Source: Callorhinchus milii (Eukaryota). Taken from it: a stretch of DNA of 64,000 bases. The DNA lies in the NCBI RefSeq assembly GCF_018977255.1, contig NW_024704742.1, positions 57,972,001-58,036,000 of the forward strand. The letters are read 5' to 3'. Below are positions 13,900 to 64,000 of the stretch, in pieces; position 1 is the stretch's first letter; every line of letters begins with the position of its first letter. A program made the translations under genes and the position numbers. The notes beneath the pieces were generated by a model. That model had not been told where the DNA came from, searched no databases, and worked only from the letters and a program-made list of their open reading frames with translations.

Positions 13900-14011
13900 T
13901 TATTTTATAATTATTCTTAAAGGCTCTGCTTTGAACTGAAACTCTAGTTCCATTTCAGCGTTCTCATCCTTTTTCACTGTTGTAACACAATCCTTCTTCT
14001 TGGTGGCAAAG
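13900..14011 (-). CDS. SLC22A5: OCTN-like gene, terminal coding exon 10 ([36 protein letters not shown])
   Basis: ttgttacag|C acceptor 282 nt downstream of exon 9, in frame to TAA at 13902-13900; the C-terminus is poorly conserved, so less certain. Confidence 0.7.
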
Positions 14012-17000: not shown

Positions 17001-20000
17001 TGTAGCCAATGAAAATATGTTGTAACCGATGAGCAATTCCTATAAAAAGTACCACCCTCTCTTCCACAGCTAGCTAATACCACATCAAAGCTTTATAATA
17101 ATTACTGAAAAGTTTTCAAAACTATTAAATAAAGGTTAGGTATTTTACTTACCGAGGTAAACAAAATATGGGGCGAGTATGGCACCAATCCTGGATGTCA
17201 TGCAACATGTCCCAATGCCCATGTTTCTCACAACAGTTGGATATAGCTCAGATGAGTAAACAAAGATTATAGCAAAGGTGGCAGATATACTCAATTTGCC
17301 AATCATTGCCAGCGCAGTGGCAATTATATGTAGATCTTTGAAATTCAAATGAAAATACAGTAGTTAGGCCTAAACTTCACAGCAACAGACAATTCAAAAT
17401 AATTTATATTCATCACCTTTTATATGTTGCTTTCATTTTTAACCATTACAAAATACTATAAAGAAATAGATTCTTTAACAATGGTGTTAGAGTTTGAACA
17501 AAGCTGGTCAATTTGTAATTGTCATTCTGTCACCAACATATTCTGCAAACAAATATCAACATCTGAACTGACAATTGTGAGTTTCTCTTAATAGCACTGA
17601 TAGATACAAAGCCATTTTAGACTCTCGGCTTTTCTGCCCCCACCATCTGGAACTCCATCCTGGATTCCCTCCACCTTGCCCTCCCTTGTCTCCTTCAAGG
17701 CCCATCTCAAGACCCTTCTCGTTGACCATGCCTTTGACGACCCTCCCAACTGCACACTCCCTGTCGACCAACCCTGTTGATTCTAACCCCCATCTCGGGC
17801 GCAAGCCATTGATTGTCCAGTGCCTAAGGACTGTATGAGAGCTAACTTTCTTTAGTTGAACATTAATAAGACCGAGGCTCTCCTGATTAGCTCCCGTCAG
17901 CACCTCCTCACCTCAGTCGCTGACAGCATCACCATCCAAAGTTGCACACTCCGCCCTGCTAAGCCAGTCCGGAACCCTGCGGTCTTGTTTGACTTTCAAC
18001 TATCTTTTCTATCCCACATCTGCTCCATGACCTGCTCTGCCTTCCCCCACCTCCGCAAAGTCGCCCGGCTCGGACACTGTCTCACACTGCAGGCCACCAA
18101 AACCCTCATACATGCCTTCATTACATCGAGGCTCAACTGTGCAAACTCACCTGTTATCGGCCTCCCCAACTCCTCCCTCCACATGCTGCAGATCATCCAG
18201 AACTCTGCAGCCTGTATCTTCTCCCGCACTAGGCTATGCAACCCTAACAGCCTCATCCTTGCCCAACTCCACTGGCTTCTAATCACATGGAGGATGGAGT
18301 TCAAGATCCTGGTCCACACCTTCAAAGCCCTCCACCTTAAAGCCCTCCTTCAAAGCCCTCTTTCTCCCGCCTACCTCTCCTTACCTCCATCTTCGCTCCC
18401 TTCGTTCAGCGGGCTCCGGCCTACTACACGTTCCCCGCCTTGCTCACCCCACTATTGGCAAGCAGGCCTTCCACCACTCTGCACCCACCCTCTGGAACTC
18501 CATCCCCCTGTCCCTCCATCTCGCCCCCTTCCTCGCCATCTCCAAGACCCACTTCAAGAACCTCCTCTTCAGCCATGCTTTCGATCACCCTGCTTCCAAC
18601 CCCGCCCTCCACCATACCCCACCCTTCCCCTAAATGGGTCCATAACTCTGTCTGTCCAGCGACTTTGGGACATCCTACCAATGTGAAAGACGCTATACGA
18701 ATGTAATTTTATTGTTGTTGCTGTTGTTGTAGGGACATCCTTCCAAAAGGTGAAAGCTGCTAAAAGGTGCTGTATAAATGCAATTTGTTGTTGTTCTTAT
18801 GGTTCTTGAATTGGTTGGTGTTGAGGGCAGTTTTAGATTTTGCAGGGAGCACATTTATGTGCTCGACTGACACCGGCCTCCTGCTCGTCCCTCACACCCT
18901 CTGCCATGCCATCGGAAGACGCACTTTCAGCCAGTACGCCTGAAACTCTAGAACGCTCTCCCTCAGTGCCTCCGCCTTGCCCCCTCTCTCCCCTTTTTCA
19001 AGTTCGACCTGAAAACTTTCTTCTTCGACCATGCTTATGGCCACCTCCAAGCACCCCCACCCAACCCCCACCCCCAGCTGGGAGACAGGCTATGCTACTG
19101 TTAAGCGCTCTGAGACGCAAAGAAAATAATTTATGTACCAGATGGAATAAAGTTTCTGACAACAACAACAAAATTACATTTCTAAAGCGCCTTTCATGGT
19201 GGGAGGACATCCCAAGGTGCTGAATAGTCAGGGATCAGGACCGGAGAGTGGGGGTGCAGGGTTGGGATGAGGGAGGGCAGGGAGTTAGGAGGGCGGCTGA
19301 AGGTACGGTCAAAAAGGAGGATTTTGAGTTCTGCCTTGTAGGAGGCAACGGAGGGAGCAAGGCAAAAGGATTGTGGGATGGAGTTACAAAGGGTGGGGCT
19401 AGAGAGGCTGAAAGCCCGGCCGCCAATGGTAGCTTTGGGACGTCCTCCCGATGTGAAAAGCGCTATATCAAATGCAAGGATTATTATTATTATTATTAGG
19501 GTGGGTCGGGCAGGAGACGTGGAGCAGGCTGGAGCCTGCTGAACACAGGGAGCAGACAGGTTGATAGGGGTTTAGCAGGTCAGAGAGATAGGAGGGGCAA
19601 GGCCATGGAGGGCCTTGAAAGTGAGGACGAGGAATTTGAACTTGATCCTCTGAGGGATGGGGAGCCAGTGGAGCCGGACGAGGGTGATGGGGTCACAGAT
19701 CCTGGTGTGGGAGAGGTCACTAAGAGGGATTATGTACAGATTGAAGAGGAGGGAAGCGAAGACAGAGCCCTGAGGAACACCGTACAAGAATGTGCGAAGA
19801 GAAACCGTTGGTGGAGACAAATTGGAGGTGGTGTGAGAGATAAGAGCTGAACCATTCAAGGTCAGAACCTTGAAGGTTAAAGTGAGAGGAGAGGTGGTGG
19901 AGGAGGATGGAATGATCCACAGTATCCAAGGCAGCAGAGAACACAGATTGACTATGTCTTTAATATGCTCTGCGACGCCACCCTGCACTAAGGGCCCTAT

Positions 20001-23000
20001 ATAAATGCAAGTTATTGTTGGTGAAAGGTTTCAACATTTTGAATTTCAGGAACAAATGGATGAAGCACTTACTTGCAGGCACTATTGAAGTCAGCAGCAA
20101 CAGAGCTCCACCAACTAACAACATGGAACTATTCGCAATTCTTCGAGATGCTTTGTGCAGCAGCCACCAGGCTACTAGGTATGCTCCAATTTCAGAAAAA
20201 CCACTGATACAACAATTAATGTAGGGGTCTCCGTACAAGTTGGAAGTGTTCAGAGATAACCCATAGTAACCAATGGTTACAACAAACCTGCAACAAAGCA
20301 TAAAACAAAGCTTGATTTTTCCATTGACTCCTCACCGGTCTCTCCAGCCTTTCTATAAACAAGGTCCAAATAATACAAAACTCTGCCATCTGTATTCTGA
20401 CCCTTACCAGTCTCACCACAGTTCTTGCCAGGTTGCACTGGCTCCCTGTTGCAGATTAATATTATTTTGTAATATTATTTCAAGATCTCACTTTCAAATC
20501 AATTCACATCCTGCCACCTCTGTACCTCTCTGATCTGCTCACATCCCACTCCACTACCCACCGCTTTCACTCAGCTGGTTTGAGTCTTGTAACTCTCTCC
20601 TATTCTCCACATCACCATTGACTAACATGCTTCCAGCCACTGTGCCCGAATCTCTGGAACCCCCTGCCTCAATCCAGCTGTTTTACCCCACCTTTGCCCA
20701 TCTTCAAATCACACCTGAAGGCTTTCCTCTTCAATCGTGCCTTTGGTCAACCATCCCACCCACCACCTCTCTCTTTCCAGCTCAGCGTCAAAACACGCGG
20801 TTGTTACATATTACAAGTTACAACTCTGATCTATAATTTGGAGTTTCTCTCAAGACACCAAGACCATGCACCAGGTATAGACAAAAAGATAAGTTAGTGA
20901 CCTACTTCCATGAATCAATCAAAGCCATTGGCAGTGACAAGAAAGTAAATATGTCGTTCTGTCAGTTTTTCTTTAACATGGTTTATCATGCCTTTGCTCA
21001 ACATCTTCAGTAAGCAACATGTTGACAGCAGAGCATGTCATGGTGGAGTCATGGTGGAGTCCTATAGCTCAGTGGTTAGAGCACTCGCTTTGTAAGTGAG
21101 AGACCTGAGTTCAATTCCAGGCAGAGGGCGAAACCTTGGGCAAGTTTCCTTACTCCACACGCCTAATAATAATCCCTCCAAAAAACAAAAACAATAATAA
21201 AAAATTGGTCATGTTCAATCTACGACTGTTTGTGGGACATTGCTGTGCGCAATTGGCTGCCACATTCGCCCACAAATATACAGTCAATTCACTTTACAGT
21301 ATATTCTGTGAAGCGCTTTGGGATGTCCTCCCGACGTGAAAAGCGCTATATCAAATGCAAGGATTATTATTATTATTTATCAGGAATTCATCATTTTGGG
21401 GAATGAAACCTACTAGGGCACTTTGTGATAAAACTGCAATCAACTGCAAACATGCTCTGATGTTTGCAGTCAATGGCTGAATCTGATTGCTAAGTTCTAT
21501 TCATGCTAGATGGTAAAAAATCCAGAATGATTTGGCATTTTTATTTCATCTATTATGTCAACATATTTCCCACTTTGATTATTTAATAGCTATCTTGATA
21601 TTAAGCAGAGTGCATTTCTATAAACTTAAAACTTTAAAAAATGGATAGTGAGCTAATATTTTCATTAGTGAAAAAATATAGGGGTAGGGTTAGATTATAC
21701 TTTTATGTACAGTAGAATCAATTAATATAGAAGCACTGACCGATGATCACAACTCATTGTAATGCCTGTTGGGATTTTATGGACCCCAGCTTCTGTTCTA
21801 ATGCTCTCTACTATGCTTACAAAAATCTAATCTAACCCTACATTATTGGGTTAAAATTTTCCAGCCTAAGACATAGTTCCTTTTGGGGTCTTCATGTCAC
21901 TAATATCACTTCCTGTGTGGAAATGACATTGATGACCACTCTATCCTCATCCACAGCCTCTCCTCTCACCTCACCCTTCATGGTGCTATCCTTGACTGGT
22001 TCAGATTATACCTCTCACTCAGCCTCCACTTCATCTTCACAAAACACTTTCTCCTCTAAACCCCCACACCACATCGTGCAGCATTCCTCAGGGCTCTGTC
22101 CTTGGCCCCTCCTCTTGAATATCTATATGCTCGCTCTTGGTAACATCATCCGCAGACAAGAGGTCAACTTCCACATGTATCCGGATGACACCCAACTGCA
22201 CCTCTCTGCCTCCACCCTTGAATCCGGGTCCACTGCTGTCCTGACAGAATGTCCATCAGACATCAAGTCCTGGATGAGATCTAACTTTCTTCAGTTGAAT
22301 GTCAACAAGACCGAGGCGCTCCTGATTGGTTTCACACTTCAGGTGCTGACAGCCCGGCTCCGCCTCTGTCTCACACCGATTGCCGCCGAGACCCTCATAC
22401 ATGCCTTCATTACATCGAGGCTTGACTATGCAAACTCCTTGCTTGTTGGCCTCACCAACTCCTCTCTCCATAGGCTGCAGATCATCCAGAACTCTGCAGC
22501 ACATGTCCTCTCCCGCACCAGGCTCCCTGACCCTATCAGCCCCATCCTCGTCCGACTCCACTGGCTTCCCATCACACAGAGAATACACTTCAAGATCATG
22601 GTCCTCACCGTTAAAGCCCTCCATTTTCTTGCACCCCCCTATCTCTGTAACTTCCTAACTCCCTACCATCCTGCTCGCTCCCTCTGCTCAGAGGTTTCCA
22701 GCGTGCTTCATGTCCCCTGCCTCACTCGCCCCACTATTGGTGGGGGGACCTTCTGCCACTTGGCCCCTCTGGAACTCCACCCCACAGTCCCTCCATCTTA
22801 CCCTCTCCCTTGCCTCCTTCAAAACCCATCTCAAGACCCTCATCTTTGACCATGCTTTCGATCTCCCTGTTTCCCCACACCCCCACTGCCCTCCACTCCT
22901 CCCGATCCCGACCCCAAGCTCGGGTCTGAAACTCTGACTGGACAGCACTTTGGGACGTGCTCCAAATGTGAAACATATTGTACAAATGTAATTTTGTTGT

Positions 23001-26000
23001 TGTTGGTCCGATGTCCTGGATGTCAGCCATTTTTTAGCTTTTGAGAAGTCAGATAGCATTTTGAAGTGAGCTGTCTGACTTTCTGCATCCATCTTGGATT
23101 GTTTCGTTAAATAATACAATTAACCACAGCAACAACAATTTGCATTTATATAGCATCCTCCACATGGGGTAGTGTCTCAGAGAGCTGAACAATGGTAAAG
23201 TTTAACACTGGATCCTTGCATTTGTTATAGTGCCTAATCCTTGCATTTGATATTGTGCCTCAATATGTTGATGAGATGCCTCAAAGTGTTCTACAGGATT
23301 TACTTATAGAGGGAGTGCAAAAAAAGTCCAAGTTAGAAGTACAACTCATGGAATCCAGACCTTAAATTTCAGAGTTTCATTCCAAGTACATAAATCAAGT
23401 AGCAATCAATATCAGAATCACTTTAGCCATCTGGTTGCTCATGTATATTCTGAGCCAGCCAACTTTGGGTGTTTGTACTTCTTTTTGATAAAACCTCCAC
23501 TCACCATATGACAAAGGATATGATAGAGATGTTTCTTATATTGGACGTTCGAAACAAATCCAAGAAGTTGTATGCACGTATATTGTTAGTCACATCTTTC
23601 TGCAGCTGGACAAACAGAAAAGATTATTCTCCTAAAGAATGTACAACTTGCAAGTTATCAGAACAATCAAAGTTTTTATAGTTTCAGCTTTCATTCCTTT
23701 GCAGATTTTCAAAAAAAGGCTCATCAACAAGTTATGCAAATATATTTTATGTAGATTTTAAACTAATAAAAAACACAGAGATTACAAACTATAAATATTC
23801 GATTATGTCAGGAGGATGTCTCAAAATGCTGGATGGGCATCTGAGCTGGGAGTGGGAGATGGGGAAGGGGAGAGGAGGGATGGATAGTGAAAAGATGACT
23901 GAAAGCATGGTCAAAAAGGTACATTTTGAGAGGTGCCTTGAAAGATTAATTGGAGGAAGTGAGTCGAAGAGAGTCCAGGATGGAATTCCAGAGAATGAGG
24001 CAGAATGGCTGGAAGCCCACTCATGGATGCAAGGCCGGATAAGACAGGAGCATGGCACAAGTCGATGTTCACTGAGTGAAGGGAGCAGCTGGGTCAGTAG
24101 GGTTGAAGAAAGTCACAGAGGTAGGGTGTAGTGATACAGTGGAGGGATTTAAAAATCAGAATGAGGATCTTGAACTCAATCTGCTGGGAAATGGGGAGCC
24201 AATAGAGTCATACTAAATAAATCATTACTTTAAGCCAAATGTCTTTGGCACAATTTGCTCTGACTATCTAAAAAAAGTTATTCAATTCCGACTTTTGATC
24301 TTGTTGGGTTTAAAGGATTGACAAGGGATTCTGCTTTGGTTTCATCCGGGCTGTGTTTGCATATGAAATCAGAAAGCAGTTGCTCAAAGGAGTGAACCAA
24401 TAGCCAAAAGTATTAGCTGTCAAAGGCCGTGTCCATGAGGTAATCAGACAAGAAGTTGGTCAAAATCTAATTTGCACCAAACAACAAACAAGAGCGTGAA
24501 CAAAGCTCTTCTGCCTCACTCAGATCAATGAAAGGTTTGGAAAGAATTCAGATTTAAATATTAGCCAGTTAATTTGAGGCTTTTGAGAGAAATGCAATTG
24601 GCTCCCAGGGTTTGTGCAATGCGAAGGTTTGGTTAACAATACAAAAGTATGACTGGATGAGTCTTTAATCGATTTTTACGTCAATTCCTTGTTTTTGAAA
24701 CAGCTGAAAATTTCAACTGCAAAGGTAAAGCTTTTTTAAAAGATTTTCTTAGTCTACATATCTTGTACTCCTTGTGCCATCTCTTATCTTTGATTGGAAA
24801 ATAATCTGCATCAGCTCTTAATATATCTGTCTTCCATACAAGACTAGGAGCACAGCAAGTGGTCTACATTAAATCTAGTATCTTGAGGACTTGTTGTGGT
24901 CCTGAGAAGTCAAGTTATTAAACAACAGCCACAGCTTGCATTCCAGGTCATAGGGATCAGGTGTCAGCGTATGTGAAATTTTTACTCAAATAAATATGAG
25001 CAGCTTTGAAAGAATTGTTTGAATTCTAACACCAACTCAAGAATCATTCTGTCCCTTCCAATGTATGTTTACCCTAGTCTGTACCTATTCTGATATCATA
25101 AAATTATTTAATAGGTATGATCAAACGAAGAATACTATTTGATCCATTTGAACTAATGCTTCCTGAATATCCAACTTATCGTTTTCCCATCACACCATCA
25201 AGATTTTTTTTTTTACAAAATGAGTCCAATGTGCTGGCGACAACCCCCATATCTAGCAACCTGTTCCTATTATTAATTACCTTCTGAGTAAAGAAAACCA
25301 AAATGCTCTCCATCTAGAAATTGCCCTTTGCAACTCTAAACATGCATTCTCTTACTCTACTGCCTTAATGCAACCTGAAGCATTGTACTGAACTTGCTTT
25401 TTCAATCCTATTTAAAATGTTCCGTAGCTCTGTAAGGTCCGCTCGGAGATGTCGCCTTTCAGGATTGAAGAGTCATAGCTTGTCTAATCGTTGCTCATAT
25501 CCCATTCCTTTAACACTGGGAATTATCCTTGTGGCTCTTCTCCGTACTGCCTCTGTGACTTGGACAGATAGAATTATACAGCACAGAAGGAGGCCATTCG
25601 GCCCATCGTGTTTGTGCCAGTTCTTTGAAAAGAGCTATCCAAATCAATTCCACTCCCCCATTCTCTTCCATAGCCCTGCAAATTTATAGAGTTAAATGCA
25701 GCCTGACCAGAGTACAATATAACTTGAGTATTATATCTGGGGTTCTGAGCTTAACTAATTCGATATTATAGGGAGGGCTCCTGATTTTCAGTTTTAACCA
25801 AAACCCCCCGATAAACAACCCCAATAATAATCCCTCCAAAAACAAAACAATAATAAATTGGCTATTTTTAATTGGTTAAAACAACACAAAAAGAATAAAA
25901 TCAGTGTTTATCCAAGTAACACCGGAAAAACACCGAAAATATATGACCTGACGTAAGTCGATGAAATATCTGAACTGATGTAAGTTTCTCTCTTGCTAGC

Positions 26001-29000
26001 TTTCAGCGCCTTCGTGGAGTGTCGCTGAAAGCCAGTAAGAGAGAAAACCCCACATGGAGTTTTTCTCCTGCTTGCTTAATAGTAATAATCCTTGCATTCG
26101 ATATAGCGCTTTTCATGTCTTCTAGACTTCCCAAAGCGCTTCACAGAATATACTGTAAAGTGAATTGACTGTATATTTGTGGGTGAACACGGCAGCCAAT
26201 TACACACAGCAATGTCCCACAAACAGTCATGGATTGAAAATAACCAATTTATTATTGTTTTTGGTTTTGGAGGGATTATTATTAGGCGTGTGGAGTAAGG
26301 AAACTTGCCCAAGGTTTCGCCCTGCCTGGAATTGAACTCAGGTCTCTCACTTGCAAAGCGAGTGCTCTAACCACTGAGCTACAGGACTCCATAACATACT
26401 CCTGGTATGAGCACAAGGAGAGAGAAAGGCGCCTTTATTCATGCGCAGTGCCTCTCTCCTCTTCACCAGATGGACCTGTGCAGACCGAGGAAAGGGAGAG
26501 ATGGAGATCAAGCAGAGTTTGTGAGAGGAGGGAAGCATTAGGGAGGCACTGTGCATGCATGAGGGCACCTCTCTCCTCTCTCCCCTCTGTGTGTGCAGGT
26601 TTATCTTCTCTGTACAGTAACGAAAGCCCGAAAATCCCGATTTATAAACACTCTAAAATTGCTAAAATATTCCTGCCAAATCAAGTTAATAAACACGGAA
26701 AAAAAGAAGCCCTAATGATAGCCTAGGATCCTGTTTGCCTTGTTTATTGCTACCTTATACTATTTTGACGTGTTGAGGGATAGGCCAACTGAAAGCTTAC
26801 ATCTGTTTCAGCTTCCCTCTTGGCACATTGCATTCCATCCATGGAGTACATGTGTTTCCTTTTCAGGAGGATGTCCTGAAGCATTTTACAGGATAGACAG
26901 TGACTGTTTTGTGGGCAAGGGAGGTAATTGGGACCGAAACAACAACTTCAAAGTGCTTATCGAGAACAATGATAAAAAAAGGAACTGAATTTAAACGAAA
27001 AGTAACATGTTACCATGTACGGTATAACATCTTTAGCCTCAGATATCATTCCAGGATATCTAATACCATTTTTCTTAGCAGCAGTTTGCAGTATTGCTTC
27101 TGCTTCTTTCACTCGGCCGTGAGAAAACAGCCACCTAGGAGACTCAGGTATAAACCTGAAATGCAAACAGTGTGGATTCAACATTAACCAGAATACAAGA
27201 CATCACAAAAATATTTACAATAATAGGTTTTGCACATTCTTTAGTTGTGTCTGTGAGGAAGTAGTGACATTCCCTCTCATTCTAATGAGAACCTGATGCC
27301 TAAGTTGTGCACGGGTTCAGAGTTTCAAGGACAGATTGGGTAGGTTGGGGACATCTGAACCGCAGGACAGAAGACATCGACAGGAGCCAAGGAGTATGGC
27401 TTCCGTCTTGTTGACATTTAACTGCAAGAAATTTGTGCTCACCCAGGTCTTGATGTCTGTCAGACAAGCTGACAGAACATCAGAGGACTGGAGGTCGCAG
27501 CTGGAGGAGGAGAAGTAGAGTTGAATGTCATCTGCATACGTGTGGAAGTTATGTGTAAAGTACTTCACATGGGGACAAATCCTGGAAGGGACTATTATTT
27601 GAACGGAAGGAAAATAATATGTATGGAAAATGAAAAGGACCCGGGGGTCCTGATTGACAATAAATTGAAGCTCTCCCAACAATGCTCTGTGGCAGTGAGT
27701 AAAGCAAACCAGATGTTGGGATGTATCAAAAGATCAATAGCAGCCGAAATAGAGGGGTAATCCTGCCACTGTATAAATCATTGGTGAGACCATACTTAGA
27801 TTACTGTGTACATTTCTGATCATCGCAGTACAAACAGAGATATCAAGAAGATACAGAGGAGGGCAACCAAAATGATTGTGGGAGTGGAGCGACTGGACTA
27901 TGAGGAACGACTAAGTAAAATGGGAAAAGAGAAAATTGAGAGACAACATGATTGGTATCTTTAAGATTCTAAAAGGGCAAGACAATGTAGAACATGGCAA
28001 GCTGTTTCAACTTGTCCAGAATAGTAAACCCAGGGGACACGGCCTACGATTGAAAGGGGGTAAATTCATAACAAATCTACGCAAACACTATTTCATTGAG
28101 CAATAGTGAATCTGTGGAACAGGCTCCTTAGGGAGACGGTTGAAGTAGGAAGTGTTGATTCTTTCAAACACAGATTAGATTGTTTTCTTTTAGGAAGTAA
28201 CATAAGTAGTTCGGGACATATGTGCTTGCAACCGCCAGGAAGGTGAAAGGCGAACTAGATGGACCTTGGTCTTTTTTCGTGTAGCATTTCTTATGGTCAC
28301 TTCAACCGTACTTTCGATCACCTTCCATCCCCCCCTGCCCTCCACCCTCCGCAATCCTGACACCTAGCTCGGGTTCAAAACACTGACTGGCCAGCACCTT
28401 GGGATGTCCTCCCGATGTGAAAGGCGCAACACAAATGTAATTTTGTTGTTGTTGTTCTCACGTTCTATTTTTCCTCAAGCAAATCATGTCCAGAACTACG
28501 TACAGAATCAATTATATAAAATTGGCATTCGTGATCCAATATGCTCTACCACCCAAAACAATTCTTAAAAGTGGAATCATACATTTGAAGTTTAAGGTCT
28601 ACATGAAATATTATTTCAAAAGATGACCAAATAAACCATTACTCAGATTACAATTATTAACTAATTGAGAAACAGATGGATAATTTTATTTTCTCCAGTG
28701 ATTACGTATTAAGGTGGCTTTCCCATATTTTAGCTTAATTCAGATAATTTAGCTTAATATTAACAAAAACAAAACTCACCACCAAAATGGCACATACAGA
28801 ATTTTTGGAAGAAACAAGGCGAGTGTTAACATGCACCAATCTCTGGCATAATATGCAGCTAGAGACAGCAACATGTAACCAAAGGCAAAGAACATACTGA
28901 TGCCAAGTGTTCCAAAAGCAACCCTCGCAGATTTGCTGAGGATTTCGGATCCTGTTAAAGAACAAATATAAAAATGATACATCATTTATTAAAACCATGT

Positions 29001-32000
29001 ATCCATTAGTACATTCAGTAAAGATGTATGTGTCTTTTTATGCGGAACAAAAATAGACATTCCTTACCATGAAAGCATAAAAGTTTCCACCCCTAGAAAG
29101 TTATCAAAAAATCACTTCCTGGAATGAATGAATGTTGGGCAAGAACAGTATCAAACTGAATGTGGTTGGATACCATGCTGATATTCACAGTTAAGGTTCA
29201 CACACAAATAATGTTACTTGGTGTAAGTAGAATCTATGCGTGTACGATAATTCCCTATTAGAAAGAAACTAATACTATGCAATATGATATTCTTATGGAG
29301 TCCTGTAGCTCAGTGGTTAGAGCACTCTATTTGCAAGCGAGAGACCTGAGTTCAATTCCAGGCAGAGGGCGAAACCTTGGGCAAGTTTCCTTATTCCACA
29401 CGCCTAATAATAATCCCTTCAAAAACCAAAAACAATAATAAATTGGTCATTTTCAATCCATGACTGTTTGTGGGACATTGCTGTGCGCAATTGACTGCCG
29501 CGTTCGCCCACAAATATACAGTCAATTCACTTTACAGTGTGTTCTGTGAAGCGCTTTGGGACGTCCTCCAGACGTGAAAAGCGCTATGTCAAATGCAAGG
29601 ATTATTATTATTATATTCAGAAAATCGGTACCGAGAAACAAATAGAGAGTTTACATTCCATGCCATACAAATGTAAATGTCCTTACATATATCGAACATG
29701 AAATTCAGAAATTTGGAACTGAAGTACAAATGGATGGCACACACTTCAGTGCATGCATATGGAAATTTCCATGCAAACTCTTCATAGTTTGCTTTGGACA
29801 CATTTAAATGTGGTGACAGGTTTCCATGTGTGTTAGGCTGACCAAACAAAAAACAAAACATATTAGACACTCCAAAGATTGTCCATTTCAGGATGAAATG
29901 TGGATCAAATAGCTCAAGGTTTGCTGACAATCTTGGCAGGATGATCTAGTGGGGTGGCAGGGGGGAGATGGGTGGGGGGAGATGGGTGGGGGGAGAGACT
30001 AAGGTTACTTGTAAATTAACAATCCAAACTTTGTCTTAATATTTAAATATTATGGAAAAATGGAAGTAAGTGGGGTATCTTCTGATGTTATAAAGTGTTA
30101 GCTTTAAAGTGTTTAAAAGGGAGAATATCACTTTAGCAGCTTCCATCCACCCTTTGATACTGTTGAAGATTTCATCCTATGATGTGTGGAGAACATTAAA
30201 TCTGAGAAGAATGGGCACTTGGATGAGATTTCAAAGTGAGCCCAGACCAATGGATCTATTCACCAGAATTAATCACTGCTGTCAAAGGATGAGAAAAATT
30301 GGGAAAAAATGTTTTGCAAGTGTTCAAGTAGGTTTCTACACTTGTAAATGCACCAGAGTTTTCAAACAGTTAATATCTTCAGAAGCTTCAAAGTGATAGT
30401 CAGTTGATTCATTGCATAAATTTAATGTGCAAGGACATTTTTTATTTATTAAGTTCATAAAAGACATAATATTCCAGGCAGATGACTAAATAATGTTTGT
30501 ATTGCCAAACCCAAACCATTCGTTTGCAACAGTCACTATCAGTTCCCAATTCTCTCTAAATCTTCTCTACAACTTCATTGCTCTCTTCCTTGCACATCTA
30601 GGCAGCGCTGTTGCACATCTAGGAGATTGGGATGACGCAGCCCACATACATTTCCACAAAACACTTCAACACCAAATGTAATGAAAATACGAGAGAGACA
30701 AAAGTCTTCATGATGGCTCCCAATTGACTGGCATTTTAAACTAGATCATCCTGCCAAGAGATTATTACCAAACAATTTAAGGGCTCAAAACATTTACATG
30801 GAGATTTTCCCTGTTTTCCTGGAGAAATATTGCAATGCCCAGACATTCCCATCCTTCAAAACTGAGGATGTCACAGTGTCAAGCAATCAGTGGACAACAT
30901 TGAAAAAATGACAACCAGATTAAAACAGGTGAAAATAAACGAGAGGGATTTACAATAATCGTAAAACACAATTATTATTGTTACATTATAAAAACTTACC
31001 TAAAACAAAAGTAGATATATAGATGGAAGAAGATCCAAAACCAACAACAAAGTGCAGTACACAGAACATCTCCCAGCTCTGAGAGGCCGTTTCAAGTAGA
31101 CCGAAGACTAGCTGCACTGTAATGCCTATAAACAGAGTAGTTTTTCTCCCATACCTTAAAAAGAAAATGCATAATTATGAATTCACAATGTAGTTTTCAG
31201 ACAACATATGCCCTGGTTCCTGCCTGCCTTATTTCTTGTTCCCCTCCGATGTGAATCATTCACAAGTGAAGCACCTTCTTGTCTCCAACCTTTACAATCT
31301 TCATCCCTTATATTAAAACAACTTTAAAAAGAAAATAAAAGGGTGTGGCTAGCAGCAAAGAAATTAAGTTTAGATATACAGTCGTAAAAACACTTTTACT
31401 GCAGATATTTTTATTGCATAAGAAAGGGGTAATTGTTGGTGCATTTTCAGACTATGGAATTGGATAGACCTCAAAAACCATTTACAGATTAGTCCTTCAG
31501 TGCAAAGTCAAAACACTGATTGAACATAAGTATTAACCAGTTAAACCTCACTGAGCCAGTCTAGAAACTTGGTGTCTTGTTTAACCTTTAAATATCCTTT
31601 CTATCTGACATCTGTGCCATGATCCGTTCTGCCTTCTCCTACATCCACAACATCGGCTAGATCTGCCACTTCCTCTCCAGAGACCTTCCACGCATTTATT
31701 ACATCTAGGTCAACTCCCCACTTGTCGGCCTTCCCAACTCTTCCGTCCACAACCTGCAGATCATCCAGAACTCTGCAGCTCATGGGATCTCCCACACCAG
31801 ACTCCGTGACCCTATCACCCTCACACTTGCCCGGCTCCATTGGCTCCCCATCCCCCAGAGGATACAGTTCAAAATCCTCATCCTCACCTTCAAGGTCCTC
31901 CACGGCCTATCTCCTTCCTACCTCTGTGACCAGTTGACACCGTATCAACCTGTCTGCTCCCTCCGCTCAGCAGGGACTGGCTTGCTACACATCCCCCGCC

Positions 32001-35000
32001 CGGCTCGCCCCACCATCAGTGGTCGGAACTCCAGCTTGTCTCCCCCCATCCTTTGGAACTCCATCCCATAGTCCCTTTGTCTTGCTCCTTCCCTTGCCTC
32101 CTTCAGAAGCACGTCTGAAGACCCTCCTCCTCGACCGTGTGGTCGGCCAACCTCACAACCCTACCCTACCTGCCCACCACACTCCCTGATCCCAACCCCT
32201 GCTCAGGTCCAGATCCCTGACTTTGCAATCCTGGGACATCCTCCCAACGTGAGAGGCACTTTACAAGTGTAATTTGTTGTTGTTGCTAAACAGTAGCTAA
32301 TTAGTTCAAGCCCTGCTCCAGAAAAAATATTGAGCAATTAAATAGTGTTATATTAAGAAACCAAAGCATAGTTGTAATTAATGCGGCATTACTATACTTC
32401 AGACAACATGTCACAAGTTTGATTCTACCCTTGTATTTTCTAAACCAGATGGCATCCAGTTCACATATCCCTCCATAGCAACTGAAAACAATTAGGCAAC
32501 AGGTGTCATTTTTGTTACAATGATTTATCTATTGAAGTGACTGTACCTGTCAGAAAATTGTCCTGAGAATAATGAACCGCACAGACCACCCAAGAAAAAT
32601 ACTGACGTAGTAAATGGTCCTTTCCAGTTATTCTCACAGACAAGATCCCACTGCTCAAAAAGCAAAATAATACATATTAGTGGTGGAGGGGGGGGGCAGG
32701 GTCTAAAATGGAATTTAAGAAGAGTTACTTCAGACAGAGTAGTGTGATTGTGAAACTCACTGTCCGAAGCAGTGGTTGAATCAAATAGTGTAGAGGCATT
32801 TAAGAGGGAGTAGGAGGGAGTAAGGAGTGACAGGAGACTCATTTGGAGGATAACCACAGATGAGTTGGGGCAAATGGCCTGTTTCTTTGCTGTACAATCT
32901 ATGTAAATCTTTGTAAATCTGCGTATCTCCTTTCAAGAATTAAAATCTGTATACTAGAAGTGGGATTATTTGAATTCAATCTGTATATGTCAATCAAAAC
33001 CAGGTTGCATCCAACCAGAACTTGCATTTATGTAGTGCCCTTCACAGAGTGCTTTGACATCTGGCAGTGATTTAATGGAGATGGTGCTAAACGACAAGTT
33101 GGCAAAGTGAGATGACTGTTGATGACTCAATACTAATAGAAAGGGGGCTTGATAATAATAATAATAATCCTTGCATTTGATATAACGCCCTACAACAACA
33201 ACAACTACAAAATTAAATTTTTATAGCGCCTTTCTCATCGGGAGGACGTCCCAAGGCGCTGTCTTATCAGATCTTTGAGACGTCTCAAAATGTTTCAGAG
33301 AATATACTGTAAAGTGAATGGACTGTATATTTTGTGGGGAAAACACAGCAGCCAATTGTACACAGCAGTGTCCCACAACCAGTCTTGGACTGAGTGACAA
33401 ATTGATTTTTTTTAAGGAATTATTACCCCTAGAAAAGCAATCCGCCAATTAACTAACAACTGGATTCTTATTTACTGTTAGGTAAACAGGTAAACAGAGG
33501 CATGTCGAGTAAAGAAACTTGCCCAATATTTCGACCTGTCAGGAATCAAACCCATGTCTCTCACTTGTGAGGCAGATGCTCTAATCACTGAGCTAGAGGA
33601 CTCCAAGTTGGATCTACAATTTAAGTTGAATCAATTCATTTTGGAAGATAGCAACACATCTTTAGAAGATACTGTCATTTGTGAAACTTAGTTTATACTA
33701 ACAGGATCACACTGCAAAAAGCTAAAGTGGATCTCTTCTTGTAACTCTTTAGATCAGGGGTGGACAAAAAAGGGGTGCCATATCCGGCCCGCCAAATGAT
33801 TCTATCTGGCCCGTCATTGTGTCTAGCAATAGAAAAAATTATAGTTCGTTCAATCCCAGAATGTCACACAAATTTTGCATTTGAATCAGAGCGGGAACAT
33901 CAGCCAATCACACTGATATTTTCTCGATTCTCACCCTGGTTCACCAGCCCCTCTGCTTGTCTGCCAAACACACTTGGCTCAAATCCGGCCTAACGGTCCA
34001 CCGCTACATCTGGCTGGATCTCATCAACAATTACCGCTCCGCTCTCGCCTCAGCCAAATCAGCCTTCTATTCCAGGTTAATCCTGAAGGCAAAAGGCAAT
34101 CCCAGGCTCCTGTTCTCCACCATTAACTGGTTCTTCCGCCCTCCCCGACACGCCTCGCAGATACTTTCCACTGACTCTCACTGCGAGAAAATGCTGGACT
34201 TCCTTGAGTCCAAAATCAAGGGAATCCGTTCAGCTGCCACTGCCCTCCCAACTTCCAACCCCTCCCTATCCACACCCCACACAATTACCCATCTGACAAT
34301 TACCCATCACTCCTTCCACACCTTTGAACCTGTCAACCCTTCCTCTGTCTTCAACACGGTAACCTCCATGAAGTCCACCACCTGCTCCCTCAACCCCATC
34401 CCTAACCCTCTCCTTAAATCCCAGCTCCACCTCTTTGCCACACTACTTGCCGACATTATTAACCTCTCCCTGTCATCTGGAACTGTTCCATCCCCCCTCA
34501 AAACAGCCACTATCACCCCCACCTTGAAGAAACCTTCCCTTGACCCATCACAGCTATCCAGCTACCGGTTCATCTCAAATCTCCCCTTTCTATCCGAAGT
34601 CCTTGAGAGAGCCGTTGCCTCCCAGCTTCGCTCTTTCCTCTCCTCCCACTCCCTCCATGAACCCCTCTAATCGGGTTTCCATTCTGCCCACGGCACGGAA
34701 ACTGCTCTAATCAAGCTTACAAACAACATCCTGACTATGTGTGACCAGGGCTCCCTTTGCCTCCTCGTTCTCCTCGACCTCTCCACCGCCTATGACACTG
34801 TGGACCACTCAATCCTCCTCCACCGCCTCTCCTCCCACCTAACCTTCAAGGTTCTGTCCTTGTCACGTTCAGGTCTTACCTTTCACACTGCCTCCACTTC
34901 TTCTCCAGCCCCCACACCGTCTCGTGCAATGTTCTTCAGGGCTCTTTCCTCGGTCTCCTCCTCCTCACTCTCTACATGCTCCCCCTTGGTGACGTCATCC

Positions 35001-38000: not shown

Positions 38001-41000
38001 ACTCTATGTCTTGTGGCGACAGCTGCTGGAAGGCATTGCATGGAGGCACATGCCGCCGAACACACCTGGACCAAATCAAACCTAACGTCCATCAGCAGAT
38101 CTGGCTAGAACACAGCAAGACTTATCTCTCTGCCCTCGCCTCCGCCAAAGCATCCTTGAAGCCAAGTGCAATCCCAGGCTCCTCTACTGCACCACTAACC
38201 GCCTCCTCCATCCACCTTTATGTGCCTCATACATCCTCTCCTACAATTTTAACTGCGAGGAGATGTTGGACTTCCTCGAATCTAAAACCAAGGGGATTCA
38301 CTCAGCTACCTTTCCCCTGTCTACTACTACCCCACCTCCCCCTCATGCCCCGGCCCCCACCCATCCCTCACTATTACACCTTCAACCCTGTCTCCCCCTC
38401 TTCCCTCATCTCCATCATCTCAAAAATGAAGCCCACCACCTGCTCCCTTGACCCCATCGCCACCCCTCTCCTTACCTCCCAGCTCCACCTCCTGGCCCCT
38501 CTTTTAACCAACATCATTAACCTCTCCTTAGCCACTAGCACTGTTCCCACACCCCTAAAAACAGCTGTCATCCCCCTATTCTCAAAAAAAATCCCTGGAT
38601 TTATCCCTATTCTCCAGCTATCACCCCACCTCCAACCTCACATTCCTCTCCAAGGCCCTGGAATGAGTCATTGCATCCCAGCTTCACTCTTTCCTCTCCT
38701 TCCATTCCCTTTACAAACCCCTCCAATCGTGTCTCTGTGCTGCCCACAGCACGAAAGAACAGCCTTGGTCAAAGTCACTAATGACATTCTGTCCACCTGT
38801 GACCAGGGGTCTCTCTGCCTCCTTTCCACCTTAACCTTTCTGCTGCCTTCGACACTGTCGACCATTCTATCCTCCTCCACCGCCTCTCCTCTCAGCTCAA
38901 CCTTCACGGACCTGCCCTTGCCTGGCTCAAATCCTACCTCTCCCACAGTCTCCACTTTGTCTCCTCTAATGGCTTCTCCTCCAGCCCTGCAACATCATGT
39001 GTGGTGTCCTCGAGGCTCTGTCCTTGGCCCTCTCTTTTTCAACATCTACATGCTCCACCTTGGTGACATCAACCGTAGACATGAGGTCAACTTCCACAGG
39101 TATGCGGTTGACACCCAACTCTACCTCTCTGCCTCCACCCTCAATTCCAGGACCACCAATAATAATGTGGTCACTGAATCCATGTCTGTCTGTCTATGGG
39201 ACACTGCTGTGTCCAATTGGCTGCTGCACTTCGCCCACAAAATATACAGTCAATCCACTTTACCGTGTATTCTGTGAAGCCCTTTGAGATGCCTCAATGA
39301 CATGGAAAGCGCTATGTCAGATGCAATGATTATTATTATTATTATAAGGCATTATGCCAGATGCAAGGATTATTATTATTATTATCATTGGCGGATGGGA
39401 CTCTCTGCCCCCACCCTTTGACTCCATTCTACAATTACTCCGCCTCGTTCCCTCCCATGCCTCCTTCATGGCCTGTCCCAAGACCCTCCTCTTCGACCAT
39501 GCCTTTGGTCATGCTCCTATCCCTACCCTCCACCCCTCCTGATCACAATCACCAGCTCTGGTGCCTGACTTTCCAGCACCTTGGGACATCCTCCTGACAT
39601 GAAACACACTATACAGATGCAATTTGTTGATTTTGTTGTTGTTGTCAACACACATTCATACATCCAGTGCCTGGAATGCACCTTCATTGGCTTGCAGAGA
39701 AGTAAACAGCTGCTGTTGTACCTCTGTACCTCCAACTAGTCAATGGGAAGGATTGTGTGCTCGAGCTGCAGAGAGGAAGATGGTGGCAATACTCTCACGC
39801 ATTTCATATTGAATTTGTGGATAGCAGACATAATGAACTCCTCGTGAGCCTCTTTTGAGCAGCTCAGCATGAAATGCGCAAGAGCATTGCCGCCATCCTC
39901 TTGCTCACAGCTCAGACATTACTCACAGCCCGCAATTACTTGGTTTAGGGTACTGGATTCTGAAGCTCATTGCAGGATCTAGCCGGAATAGACAGAATAG
40001 AAGAATTAATACAGGAGGCCCACAACATTTTGCAGACTGGTAGCACAAAATCAGATGATGTTGATTGGGATGACTTAAATAAAGAAGTTAAGAAGTAACC
40101 ATGGCTAGTTAAAAATGATGTAGGTGGGACGCATGAAAGTCGCAGTTTGGCTTGGATATTCATAAGCATGGTGATGGGTTTCCGCATGAGTCAGATACCC
40201 GGCTGACCAAAAAAAAGGTTGTAATCGAGCCAGCCCTCTGTGGTGGTCTCAGTTACGTTATTCCTGATCCAGGTGGGTCCGTAGTATTCCAGGGCACTGC
40301 TGATGACAGCACAGCCAGGCTGGCTTATCAGCAGGACTTGGAAATGCAGACCAGTCACCGGGGTCAGGGTGTCATCACACTCAGCTTAGCAAAGCCCTAA
40401 CAGGTAGGGTGGTCCTAGCTGGACAAGCAGGGGAAAACTTGCCAGACAGCGATATGAATGGCAAGCTATGCGGTTTTAGCTAGTTAGACTCCAGCAGTGT
40501 TCCAAAGCACACTTGGGGTCCCCAAGCCTTGGCTCTTCCCAACCTGTGCATAATACTTTAATAAATCTCAGTTTGGTTTGGATGCTCTTAAGCATGGTGA
40601 CGGGTTTCCGTATGTGTCAGACACTTGGCTGACCAAAAAGAAAAAAATATTTTCCAGGCAGGAGAGGGGGAATCTATTTTGTCACTTGAACAAAACACAA
40701 AATACTGCAGATGCTGGAAATCTGAAACAAAAACAGAGGTGGCTGGGAACACTCAACAGGTCAGGCAGCATCTATGGAGAAAAGAAAGTGAGTCAACGTT
40801 TGGGGTCCACAATCCTTCGTCAGAACTGGTTTCTATTTTGTTACTTGGCCAAGGGTATCATACCAGATAGTGATGGATGAATAAAATCATTCACAATTCT
40901 TACCTGAGTGACAATAGTAGAGATGTACCTGTCAGTGCTGTACTCCCAGCCATCCACACAGGGCTCAGTCTCAGGTGTTGTGGCATTTAAAGCATCTGTT

Positions 41001-41269
41001 GCAGGAGTTTTGTATCTTCTACATCGACTGTAGATCATCTCACCATCCACCTCCTCTACAGGCAGCAGTGAACTCAGATTAGCTTCTCCAGTGGTTCTGT
41101 TCAGAGAGTCAGGCAGACGGCAGTGGTGCTGAGGGGTGTCTGCCAGAAACACCATAGACAGACCAGTGTAGCCGTTGTGCAAAACGATGAGACTCAACAG
41201 AAACAACACAGTTCTCTGGAAGGTTCCCCAATCTCCCAGGAAAGCGATGGCTTCATCATAGTCTTGCAT
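13900..41269 (-). CDS. SLC22A5: Complete 10-exon SLC22A4/SLC22A5 (OCTN)-like organic cation/zwitterion transporter gene. CDS join (minus): 41269-40904, 32650-32547, 31154-31000, 28951-28780, 27155-27029 (or -27014), 23605-23505, 20287-20073, 17335-17153, 14429-14294, 14011-13900
   Basis: All exons read by hand with GT-AG boundaries and consistent phases; total 1671 (or 1686) nt with no internal stop. Motifs [50 protein letters not shown]. Orthology to SLC22A4 versus SLC22A5 cannot be resolved by eye. Confidence 0.93.
14294..14429 (-). CDS. SLC22A5: OCTN-like gene, exon 9 ([44 protein letters not shown], 136 nt)
   Basis: tttcag|GA acceptor, TG|GTAAGT donor; TM12 plus LPES...LPE. Confidence 0.93.
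15335..16600 (-). mobile_element. L2 RT fragment (intron 8) interrupted by a plus-strand SINE
   Basis: [46 protein letters not shown]. Confidence 0.9.
15827..16144 (+). mobile_element. Full-length tRNA(Ala)-derived SINE with Deu-like core and L2-type tail
   Basis: A box agctcagtggttagagc, anticodon-like TTGCA, B box gagttcaattcc, core tgtgggacactgctgtgcgcaattggctgc, (ATT)n tail. Confidence 0.92.
17153..17335 (-). CDS. SLC22A5: OCTN-like gene, exon 8 ([13 protein letters not shown]...[11 protein letters not shown]...[15 protein letters not shown], 183 nt)
   Basis: aaag|AT acceptor, G|GTAAGT donor; ELYPT motif and the conserved TM11 Arg. Confidence 0.95.
17845..18730 (+). mobile_element. L2 LINE 3' fragment
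   Basis: ORF 17856-18686 with [15 protein letters not shown]; (TTG)n tail. Confidence 0.9.
19160..19940 (-). mobile_element. Rearranged L2 fragments with an embedded SINE tail (19431-19498)
   Basis: [28 protein letters not shown]2 tail at 19160-19230. Confidence 0.8.
20073..20287 (-). CDS. SLC22A5: OCTN-like gene, exon 7 ([25 protein letters not shown]...IVPA, 215 nt)
   Basis: tgcag|G acceptor, A|GTAAGT donor; GYYGLSL and E..AY motifs. Confidence 0.95.
21056..21378 (+). mobile_element. Full-length tRNA-derived SINE
   Basis: Near-identical to the 15827-16144 copy. Confidence 0.92.
21930..23005 (+). mobile_element. L2 LINE RT/3' fragment
   Basis: [33 protein letters not shown]; (TTG)n tail. 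Confidence 0.92.
23505..23605 (-). CDS. SLC22A5: OCTN-like gene, exon 6 ([34 protein letters not shown], 101 nt)
   Basis: tccag|CTG acceptor, TG|GTGAGT donor; 101 nt; LDLFRT..IR motif. Confidence 0.92.
25195..25735 (-). mobile_element. CR1-like fragments, including a nested CR1 3' end (25565-25685)
   Basis: Reverse strand reads as RT C-terminal-like ([24 protein letters not shown]); atagaattatacagcacagaaggaggccattcggcccatc tail. Confidence 0.6.
25768..26713. mobile_element. Possible hAT-like non-autonomous DNA transposon containing a SINE and a hairpin
   Basis: Ends agggctcctgattttcagttttaac and gttaataaacacggaaaaaaagaagcccta form imperfect inverted repeats; TSD not identified. Confidence 0.4.
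26078..26391 (-). mobile_element. Full-length tRNA-derived SINE
   Basis: Reverse complement of the 15827/21056/29297 family. Confidence 0.92.
27014..27155 (-). CDS. SLC22A5: OCTN-like gene, exon 5 ([30 protein letters not shown]...); donor either after 27029 (127 nt) or after 27014 (142 nt)
   Basis: ttcag|G acceptor at 27155; PESPRWL motif; both candidate donors are in frame. Confidence 0.9.
27310..27550 (-). mobile_element. L2 RT fragment
   Basis: [25 protein letters not shown]. Confidence 0.85.
27551..28296 (+). mobile_element. CR1 LINE 3' fragment (same family as 11796-12775)
   Basis: [29 protein letters not shown]; matching 3' end ggtcttttttcgtgtagcatttcttatg. Confidence 0.9.
28780..28951 (-). 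CDS. SLC22A5: OCTN-like gene, exon 4 ([16 protein letters not shown]...YVPFWW, 172 nt)
   Basis: aacag|G acceptor, TG|GTGAGT donor; matches ORF 28776..28985. Confidence 0.95.
29297..29612 (+). mobile_element. Full-length tRNA-derived SINE
   Basis: ggagtcctgtagctcagtggttagagc head through (ATT)n tail. Confidence 0.92.
31000..31154 (-). CDS. SLC22A5: OCTN-like gene, exon 3 ([52 protein letters not shown], 155 nt)
   Basis: tttaag|G acceptor, G|GTAAGT donor; 155 nt as in OCTN genes; not in ORF track, translated by hand. Confidence 0.93.
31545..32285 (+). mobile_element. L2 3' fragment
   Basis: ctccattggctccccatcccccagagg, ctttggaactccatccc, (TTG)n tail. Confidence 0.85.
32547..32650 (-). CDS. 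SLC22A5: OCTN-like gene, exon 2 ([35 protein letters not shown], 104 nt)
   Basis: AG acceptor at 32652-32651, GT donor at 32546; canonical 104-nt SLC22 exon. Confidence 0.95.
33152..33605 (-). mobile_element. Older tRNA-SINE copy with an extra L2-type tail piece
   Basis: ctaatcactgagctagaggactcca head (reverse); aatatactgtaaagtgaat core. Confidence 0.75.
33960..35426 (+). mobile_element. L2 ORF2 middle/RT fragment
   Basis: [52 protein letters not shown]. Confidence 0.92.
37240..37853. mobile_element. Two opposed L2 3'-end fragments (37240-37410 minus, 37620-37853 plus)
   Basis: [24 protein letters not shown] and L2 tails. Confidence 0.7.
38045..39160 (+). mobile_element. L2 ORF2 middle/RT fragment
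   Basis: [41 protein letters not shown]. Confidence 0.9.
39763..39913. repeat. Palindromic (MITE-like) element with ~45-bp imperfect arms
   Basis: gagctgcagagaggaagatggtggcaatactctcacgcatttcat versus atgaaatgcgcaagagcattgccgccatcctcttgctcacagctc; related arm at ~1077-1106. Confidence 0.65.
40690..40828. mobile_element. Short dispersed repeat resembling a Penelope-associated terminal segment seen in shark genomes
   Basis: aaatactgcagatgctggaaatctgaaacaaaaacaga...caggtcaggcagcatct; family assignment from memory only. Confidence 0.4.
40904..41269 (-). CDS. SLC22A5: OCTN-like gene, coding exon 1 (MQDYDE...ISTIVTQ, 366 nt)
   Basis: ATG at 41269; donor CAG|GTAAGA at 40903; SLC22 N-terminus, TM1 and large extracellular loop with conserved Cys residues. 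Confidence 0.95.
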
Positions 41270-41426
41270 TGTCTCAAGTTTCGAAATGCAGGAAAAACTG
41301 CCAAACAGCTGACACCACAAGTCACGCAAATACACTCAGCAGTTGGCTAAAAAGAAACCTCTTGAAATAAAGGTAAAATGAGAGCTGCATTGCAACCAAC
41401 TTCCACTGTGCAGCTCCCTTTGCCGG

Positions 41427-44472: not shown

Positions 44473-44576
44473 TGGGATCTCGTCTGTGAGGATAGCTGGA
44501 AAGGACCATTCACTACTTCAATGTTTTTCGTAGGCGTGTTTTCTGGTTCCTTTGCCTCTGGACATCTTTCTGACAG
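44473..44576 (+). pseudogene. Orphan OCTN-like exon 2 ([35 protein letters not shown]) of a third, fragmentary paralogue
   Basis: ttgcag|TGG acceptor, AG|GTAAAG donor, exactly 104 nt; no plus-strand exon 1 recognised upstream in the window. Confidence 0.85.
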
Positions 44577-62829: not shown

Positions 62830-63790
62830 TGACCGATCTGCTTTTCCAAATCCTGTCCCAGAGTGCTTGAGAGTGGCGGAGCACGACTATGAGCCGGTGA
62901 GGGGGGGGGGAGCGGGGTGATCGTAGGCACAACAACTTGTACTTATATAGCAGCCTCCATGCAGGGTAGCAGCTCAGAGCACTTAACAATGATGAAGCTT
63001 GACTCCCCACCGAGTCACGGAAGGAAATGGAAGGTCTTCAGACGCAACTTAAAGATGGGGAAGGAAGGGACAAGGTGGAGAGATAGAGTGTTCAAGAACA
63101 TGAACGAGTATCATAATGTCCAGCTGTCCTTAAAATTAAAATTAACTGATTTGTTTTGACAAAACAGACACTTGCCCATGATTCACAATGGGATTGTAAT
63201 ATTTGCAATAATATTTGTCATTTGCCATTTGACCAGACTTGCTTAACTACTCACTAACCCAGCAACCAGTGCAATGCAGCACCCGGGCTGTCCCCACAGA
63301 GTCACATTGTAGTCAATCCAAGGATTTTTTGCAAAGAATATCTTCTGATCCCCTGGATTATGCCCAGAGGAGCGGAGTTCCTGAAAGTGCGTCGCCAACA
63401 GACCCATTGCAGCTCAAAGTTTCATGTTGGAGTGTTGCTGAAGAATATGCCTGGGTATTCGATCGCCTGGGGATATTATCCCAACACACTCACAACCTGG
63501 ACTCTAACAGAATCAATGGACTTGAGAGGGAGGGATTCACATGTGACTTTGGACTGGTTTAGGAGGGGAGGAGCTGTCCCTTGAAGTGCAACTGCTCATG
63601 ATTACTGAGAGCAGTGCTTGCCAGTCAAACCTGCACGGCTGTGTGAATGTTTCAGTTTATTTGAATTGTTGGAAGAGAATTTTGTTTGAAAGAACTTTAA
63701 ATATCATGTCCATGAGATCATAGAAAAAATTATTACTTGTCGACATTATCTGTGTCAACTGGAAGAACATTGTATTCAGAAAAGGAGACA

Positions 63791-64000
63791 ATGCAAGACT
63801 ATGATGAAGCCATCGCTTTCCTGGGAGATTGGGGAGCCTTCCAGAGAACTGTGTTCTTTTTGTTGAGTGTTTCAGTTATCCCTAATGGCTATGTGGGTCT
63901 GTCTATGGTGTTTCTGGCAGACACCCCTCAGCACCACTGCCGTCTGCCTGACTCTCTGAACGGAACCACTGGAGAAGCTAATCTGAGTTCACTGCTGCCT
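63791..64000 (+). CDS. SLC22A5: Second OCTN-like paralogue, exon 1 (partial, runs off window): [70 protein letters not shown]
   Basis: ATG at 63791, open for 70 codons to the window end; 192/210 nt identical to minus-strand exon 1. Confidence 0.9.

Follow-up and report, generated by a model that had tools for sequence, protein, structure and literature searches.

The question raised by this locus is how two neighbouring transporter genes, here called A and B, came to have a first exon that is 99% identical outside a 40-base patch in TM1, and why that patch stayed different. The window, i.e., the whole stretch of 64,000 nucleotides analysed, corresponds to the OCTN (SLC22A4/5) cluster of the chimaera Callorhinchus milii. 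The best database matches of its genes are OCTNs, far above OCT/OAT (640 bits for OCTN2 and 255 for OCT2 in the PDB), which places them in the OCTN (SLC22A4/A5) subfamily, and the carboxylate-binding residue equivalent to R471 is an arginine in all six chimaera paralogues. Exon 1 of the window is 79-84% identical to Callorhinchus milii SLC22A4/5-like proteins and 92-98% to other near-identical proteins. Six Callorhinchus paralogues, A to F, were present in the protein collection, and the data suggest that they lie in one cluster; these genes fall, with relatives from bichir, gar and sturgeon, in a short-loop lineage, and neither OCTN1 nor OCTN2 is their one-to-one orthologue.

Gene A is complete, with 10 exons on the minus strand from 41269 to about 13903. 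Its exon 1 (40904..41269, minus strand) has 366 coding nt, ends at a GT donor and is the longest of coding exons 1-9 (366, 104, 155, 172, 142, 101, 215, 183, and 136 nt); its translation agrees with residues 1-122 of P0113/P0114, which bear the name Callorhinchus milii SLC22A4-like and whose remaining exons also map to the window. Exons 2-10 (13903..32650, minus strand) are open, with AG/GT borders, and lie at 32650-32547, 31154-31000, 28951-28780, 27155-27014, 23605-23505, 20287-20073, 17335-17153, 14429-14294, and about 14010-13903. Gene B starts at 63791 on the plus strand, head-to-head with gene A and with 22.5 kb between them; the window carries the first 70 codons of its exon 1 and 6 shared nt of 5'UTR (63785..64000, plus strand), and the gene runs beyond it. 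The 70 residues agree with P0118/P0002/P0003 at 69 positions, and all that is said below of gene B beyond codon 70 refers to the database proteins P0118/P0003. Between the two genes lie pieces of a relic OCTN gene, 3.2 kb from the start of gene A: an open exon 2 with intact AG/GT borders (44473-44576, plus strand), which differs from exon 2 of gene A at 23 of 104 nt, and a 5'-truncated, stop-free exon 3 (47035-47175, plus strand), which keeps Q207/N210 and is 81-83% identical to bichir/sturgeon proteins against 50-74% to the chimaera paralogues. Neither an exon 1 nor any exon from 4 onwards of this relic was found between A and B. A 281-codon open frame located between the two start codons (51478-52323, plus strand) has an Otopetrin Pfam match (E 2.9e-8), while the other four of the five single-exon peptides searched in Pfam matched no family, and a tandem repeat array with a unit of about 28 nt (41562-42700) begins about 300 nt upstream of the gene A ATG.

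A preliminary description of this DNA had counted 18 differences in 210 nt between 63791-64000 (plus strand) and 41269-41060 (minus strand). We obtained the same count, and likewise the placing of 16 of the 18 in codons 22-35 (at nt 66-105), the beginning of the A/B identity 6 nt before the ATG and the 11-residue TM1 peptides that had been given for the two copies. The two remaining differences, also as described, are codon 16 GCC/ACC and codon 58 GGA/AGA, both of them non-synonymous. Such clustering is beyond chance, as none of 200,000 shuffles placed 16 of the 18 differences within 42 nt and the shuffle maximum was 13. According to Nei-Gojobori estimates, made on the 70 codons of the single pair A/B, pS is 0.65 (6.7 of 10.3 sites) and pN 0.29 in the island, against a pS of 0 (0 of 42.6 sites) and a pN of 0.016 in the 56 codons of the flanks, the difference in synonymous divergence being significant (Fisher p 2e-6). 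The island of gene A (codons 22-35; 41165..41206, minus strand) has I28, H31, N32, and T35 where human OCTN2 has S28, P31, N32, and T35, while that of gene B (63854..63895, plus strand) is of the canonical type, with S28, P31, N32, G33, and G36. On its 5' side gene A has the tract shared with B (6 nt of 5'UTR and codons 1-21; 41207..41275, minus strand), in which 1 of 69 nt differs, and on its 3' side the homogenised end of TM1 and the extracellular loop (codons 37-122; 40904..41161, minus strand), common to the six paralogues at 90-98% aa identity. The A/B comparison thus has the form of a divergence peak, with converted sequence to either side of a short divergent segment; the mammalian patch at residues 35-45, described below, has this form too.

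The sharing of exon 1 contrasts with the rest of the genes. In all 15 chimaera pairs residues 37-122 are 90-98% identical against 52-72% for exons 2-9, and between A and B the values are 98% for the loop and 59% for exons 2-9, with individual exons from 2 to 9 ranging from 51 to 71% aa. Uniformly low divergence over the other exons, which had been named beforehand as the sign of a simple recent duplication, was therefore sought and not found, and the A/B pair is not a recent duplication because its exons 2-9 are only 59% identical. A tree of exons 2-9 from 26 sequences places F with shark and ray paralogue 3 (98/95) and D and E with paralogue 2 (94/86), and it rejects a chimaera-only clade (p-AU 1.3e-5); the loop tree rejects the grouping of F with paralogue 3 (p-AU 0.002) and sets the six chimaera genes a few hundredths of change per site apart, with weak support for their clade (79/71). 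Two chimaera lineages thus join orthologues from sharks and rays when exons 2-9 are used, which makes some of the duplications older than the loop identity. In the tree of those exons a clade of chimaera genes alone unites A, B, and C (97/93), with C as the sister of A (93/88), and the path between A and B measures about 0.8 changes per site, compared with about 0.02 in the loop. Nor is the loop a slowly evolving region in itself: within two orthologue groups of 12 sequences it is only 79 and 68% identical, where most TM exons reach 74-88%. Paralogues are closer than orthologues inside the tract and the reverse holds outside it, with synonymous sites of the A/B flanks identical too, so that gene conversion between paralogues, as proposed in the preliminary description, is supported, and we consider it very likely that exon 1 is shared by conversion. 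Among the other exons only exon 5 of D and E (P0126 and P0007) is as similar as the loop, at 95% against 41-81% in the other exons 2-9 of this pair, and may be a second small conversion tract.

The extent of the tract differs in part from what had been proposed, namely that both the N-terminus and the loop are homogenised. The loop part (codons 37-122) holds for all six paralogues, but only A/B and E/F come close to identity over the first 21 codons (19 of 21 in each), the other 13 of the 15 pairs sharing 15-17 of 21. For most pairs, then, TM1 is the 5' edge of the tract and not an island. This edge lies at codon 36/37, just behind the PNGYxG motif, in 6 of 6 paralogues, and the 3' edge reaches the last two codons; across the six, residues 22-36 are variable at 13 of 15 positions and residues 37-122 at 14 of 86. 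The TM1 of E and that of F each share 13 of 15 residues with their own shark orthologue, against 10 of 15 between E and F.

The possibility of an assembly collapse or polishing artefact, also raised beforehand, was tested with short-read contigs from 4 of 24 runs aligned to 40450-41550, whose depth does not equal true copy number. The A island was present, between shared flanks, in three DNA-type runs and in one probable RNA run (X5). In X2 and X3 its contigs had 0 differences and a depth (13.7 and 12) close to that of the 5' flank (11.2 and 12.9), and an equal contig occurred in X5. Over the loop, contigs of 146-181 nt with one difference reached a depth of 45-55 against 7.7-12.9 on the 5' flank, the collapsed high-depth contig covering 40935-41080, and just inside intron 1 the depth was 3.6-5.2; the loop depth is therefore as expected of several collapsed copies. 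In X5 both arms were recovered over 41126-41254, the A-type contig with 0 differences and the B-type with 16 differences and 2 gaps, and this B-type contig differs from B of the window at two synonymous sites (41197 and 41156). Both island types thus stand beside a collapsed loop, and the mosaic is not a polishing artefact because independent contigs carry A and B-type islands between shared flanks. Among the DNA contigs listed there are B-like types with and without the 41197 change, which may represent more than one B-like exon 1 or an allele; P0119 (UniRef, 114 aa) is a further B-like, exon-1-only model with PNS for PNG and I71. As for the claim that conversion is ongoing, it rests on differences between records: those of gene A vary at residues 58, 93, and 113 and those of gene B at 19, each state being found in another paralogue, and the D93 change of one X5 contig lies 18 nt from the A-specific P99. 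These differences would fit continuing exchange and are suggestive, recurrent mutation and mis-assembly being possible sources as well.

Human OCTN2 (SLC22A5, PDB 9PDQ) is the best solved relative (E 4e-191), and gene B aligns with it without gaps and colinearly over residues 1-53. In the OCTN2 cryo-EM structure, the S28 backbone binds Na+ together with N32 and N210, the motif PNGFxG occupies 31-36, Q180 and Q207 couple the ion to carnitine, and L37 and V40 form the outer gate (PMC12780140). In OCTN1, N32A, Q180A, and N210A lower uptake to about 25% and S28A to about 75% (PMC13669368). Codons 22-35 cover the TM1 half of the Na+ site because B aligns gaplessly with the site residues of human OCTN2, and the divergent patch holds, as judged by alignment to the human OCTN2/OCTN1 structures and mutants, functionally important sites. 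Gene B has the residues of the Na+-coupled type (S28, PNGF/YxG, Q180, Q207, and N210, exon 3 being that of P0118) and so keeps the whole Na+ site. Gene A, in contrast, has I28 and H31 in TM1 and, in its exon 3 (TM3-TM4; 31000..31154, minus strand), S207 and I210, so that relative to human OCTN2 it lacks S28, P31, Q207, and N210 while N32 and Q180 are kept; equivalents of R471, Q180, and Y211 are kept in both genes. Paralogue C has L31, S32, C36, L207, and I210. The serine of P0122 (paralogue C) stands at the position of human N32, and N32S is a carnitine-deficiency allele in people (PMC12780140). These residues lead to the prediction that B couples transport to Na+, and that A, like its sister C, does so weakly or works independently of Na+.

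Therefore, we hypothesize that conversion tracts overwrite exon 1 while selection removes those that cross the TM1 patch, an explanation to which, as a whole, we assign a probability of roughly 0.66. Short non-crossover tracts would convert exon 1, which at 366 nt is the only long homology block (exons 2-9 have 101-215 nt), and conversion of the loop would be tolerated if the loop is interchangeable. TM1, in turn, would have to fit the TM4 encoded in the same gene, beyond the reach of exon-1 conversion, with A and C uncoupled from Na+ or weakly coupled to it and B coupled; a swapped TM1 would be purged because its partner residues lie in unconverted exons. The 69-nt N-terminal tract is the weakest step of this mechanism because conversion requires a few hundred similar bases (PMC3924837), and against the long exon as the driver stands the fact that shark and ray orthologues have the same long exon and show no homogenisation now.

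As to the statement that selection keeps TM1 distinct, selection on the island is likely, given conversion, in view of the Na+ site, the position of the tract edge and a toy model; it is inferred, and covariation gave no significant result. I or L at 28 occurs in 10 of 90 sequences, all of them without N210 and representing 4 changes on the tree, and N210 is missing from 19 sequences, 9 of which are without a bulky residue at 28. On independent pairs, with traits chosen after inspection of the table and Hfra_1 and Hfra_3 dropped for gaps, TM1-TM4 covariation was not significant (sign test, median p 0.125-0.5, 4-6 pairs, none opposite), and an association of PN-motif loss with N210 loss (Fisher p 0.028) was set aside as it ignores relatedness. 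Also against the Na+-site reading, S28 binds by its backbone and S28A keeps about 75% activity. In the toy model, a clean interior island arose in 1 of 5,760 neutral runs (48 settings) and, with three protected sites, in 285 of 3,600; under a looser threshold the counts were 551 with protection and 11 under neutrality, each of 3,600. When a 30-nt seed was required, 1 island arose in 1,800 selected runs; here the N-terminus was lost too and the loop was at best partly homogenised, which resembles the other pairs. The simulation shows plausibility only, because the protected sites were placed by hand and one-off historical tracts lie outside the model.

The same kind of pattern recurs in other vertebrates. 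In the ray Narcine bancroftii, six long-loop paralogues have a loop identity of 97-100% against 62-82% for the rest, and exons 2-9 of one of them (P0067) are 88% identical to a Heptranchias protein. For mammalian OCTN1/OCTN2, 12 of 14 pairs were counted, 3 of which pair two related species; the pairs of Rhinolophus sinicus and Prionailurus were dropped, as exon 1 is identical in both models, which are possibly chimeric. In the 12 pairs, identity within the pair is 98.0% for the loop against 90.6% between orthologues, and 70.4% for the rest against 89.0%. The patch spared in mammals comprises residues 35-45, not 22-35, with 76.5% within the pair against 85.0% between orthologues and 31 of the 59 exon-1 differences, and in Hipposideros it is wholly overwritten (12 of 12). 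A count by eye over residues 1-131 gave 10 differences between gibbon OCTN1 and human OCTN2, 5 of which fall in 35-44, and a gecko pair shows 90% against 72-75%. Homogenisation was not seen in the coelacanth pair (loop 68%, rest 69%), in the reedfish, tarpon, and sturgeon pairs, nor, at present, in the shark and ray orthologues of the window cluster (loop 58-81%). All 17 short-loop loops of sharks and rays group against the chimaera loops (98/96), which suggests that exon 1 was once converted in the elasmobranch stem as well and that this phase later came to an end. Most teleost pairs were set aside as isoforms or young duplicates, and turtle pairs, with exons 2-9 96-100% identical, were not counted as they look like chimeric models. 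The models P0183/P0199, P0212/P0218, and P0206/P0207 of turtles and P0261 of a cat join exon 1 of one gene to the body of the other, and these may be either annotation chimeras or real read-through transcripts.

Other explanations were weighed against this evidence. Without exchange, the pattern would have to come from a recent duplication of the whole gene or from strong purifying selection on the loop. The chimaera-only clade of A, B, and C in exons 2-9 would agree with this explanation, but it is refuted by the much shorter A-B path in the loop, by the zero synonymous differences in the flanks and by the fast evolution of the loop among orthologues. That reads of one copy overwrote the other during assembly or polishing is largely refuted: the states of the A records at 58, 93, and 113 do match other paralogues, as mis-assigned reads could give, but in other runs the contigs merge over the loop and separate at the island, the mosaic is present in two record sets for gene A, and Narcine and mammals have the same pattern. 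The inverted, head-to-head arrangement of A and B would also allow reciprocal crossovers between the exon-1 copies, a flip-flop of the 22.5-kb spacer with conversion at its junctions that would homogenise the exon and could swap promoters and TM1. We regard this as highly improbable, since every one of 7 A records, like the window itself, links the A island to the A body, all 6 full-length B records link the B island to the B body, and the sharing of the loop by four further paralogues would be left unexplained. Quite improbable, too, is a recent donation of the gene A island by a third, diverged or lost paralogue after homogenisation of the whole exon; many synonymous differences in a sharp block would then be expected as well, and the relic gene without exon 1 is close to the start of A, but the window holds no second copy of the island, the other five paralogues do not have it, its contigs are at single-copy depth, and the exon 3 of A itself carries matching losses.

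The more serious alternative accepts conversion and takes the island as neutral, a gap that remained where a single N-terminal conversion in A/B and the long-lasting conversion of the loop failed to meet, and kept by its own mismatches. The near-identity of the N-terminus in only 2 of 15 pairs is what such a gap would produce, the excess of pS (0.65) over pN (0.29) marks the island as an old relic and not as accelerated change, and the non-significant covariation and the overwriting of the mammalian patch point the same way. Against it, the neutral toy model, which lacks one-off historical tracts, almost never gave a clean interior island, the loop tract stops behind PNGYxG in all six paralogues and yet reaches the last two 3' codons, and a spared TM1 stretch recurs in Narcine and mammals. 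On balance this neutral origin seems unlikely to us, and conversion with selection against tracts crossing TM1 is preferred.

If selection does protect the patch, the unconverted residues would be an evolutionary pointer to those that distinguish each transporter, in a site whose structure was solved only in 2025-26 and for which the authors of the OCTN2 structure state that the role of TM1 in coupling and gating needs further work (PMC12780140). Chimaera A, B, and C would offer ready natural variants for Na+ coupling. Exon-1 sharing between mammalian OCTN1 and OCTN2 makes exon 1 misleading in phylogeny and annotation, and chimeric-looking gene models were indeed seen. More broadly, and as a tentative proposal that we think somewhat less probable than its negation, OCTN exon 1 may be a recurrent conversion cassette across jawed vertebrates, human SLC22A4/SLC22A5 included, with the loop shared within species and selection fencing off TM1 residues for Na+ coupling (chimaera) or the outer gate (mammals) that match partners in other exons; A and C would be natural Na+-uncoupled OCTNs, and SLC22A4-to-SLC22A5 tracts across 35-45 an unrecognised source of human alleles. 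The exon-1 sharing could also affect short-read variant calling in SLC22A5, the gene of primary carnitine deficiency. The case is more useful than most, as the residues spared fall in a functional site of solved structure and a human disease gene pair shows the pattern too.

The process itself is known, a divergence peak of the opsin type being textbook material, and for this OCTN case no earlier paper was found. A search of the open-access literature gave none on OCTN gene conversion, a listing in some genome-wide screen being possible, and a paper on SLC22 evolution has no match for 'conversion' or 'concerted' (PMC4633038). Among mosaic mammalian pairs, BMP8A/B, DDX19A/B, and TUBG1/2 resemble the chimaera genes in that some exons group by species and others by gene (Carson and Scherer, PMC2720389), with boundaries conserved for more than 100 million years; that screen required two exons and an intron at >97% identity, which a single-exon tract would escape, and its main text mentions neither SLC22 nor OCTN. 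Copepod GOT1p1/p2 also has divergent islands in converted paralogues, and differs in being a population-level enzyme study whose abstract reports no structural mapping (PMC3728101). The review of Fawcett and Innan, which cites papers on RHCE/RHD and protocadherins, describes the nearest counterpart, the exon-5 peak of the human red/green opsins (PMC3924837). There introns convert and an exon is spared, whereas in the chimaera OCTNs one exon converts and a patch is spared inside it, introns and exons 2-9 are fully diverged, some duplications predate the chimaera-shark split, and the functional role of the patch is deduced from the human structures. In both systems, neighbours about 22-24 kb apart are homogenised around a narrow divergent stretch at functional residues, and this stretch is closer to its orthologues than to its paralogues.
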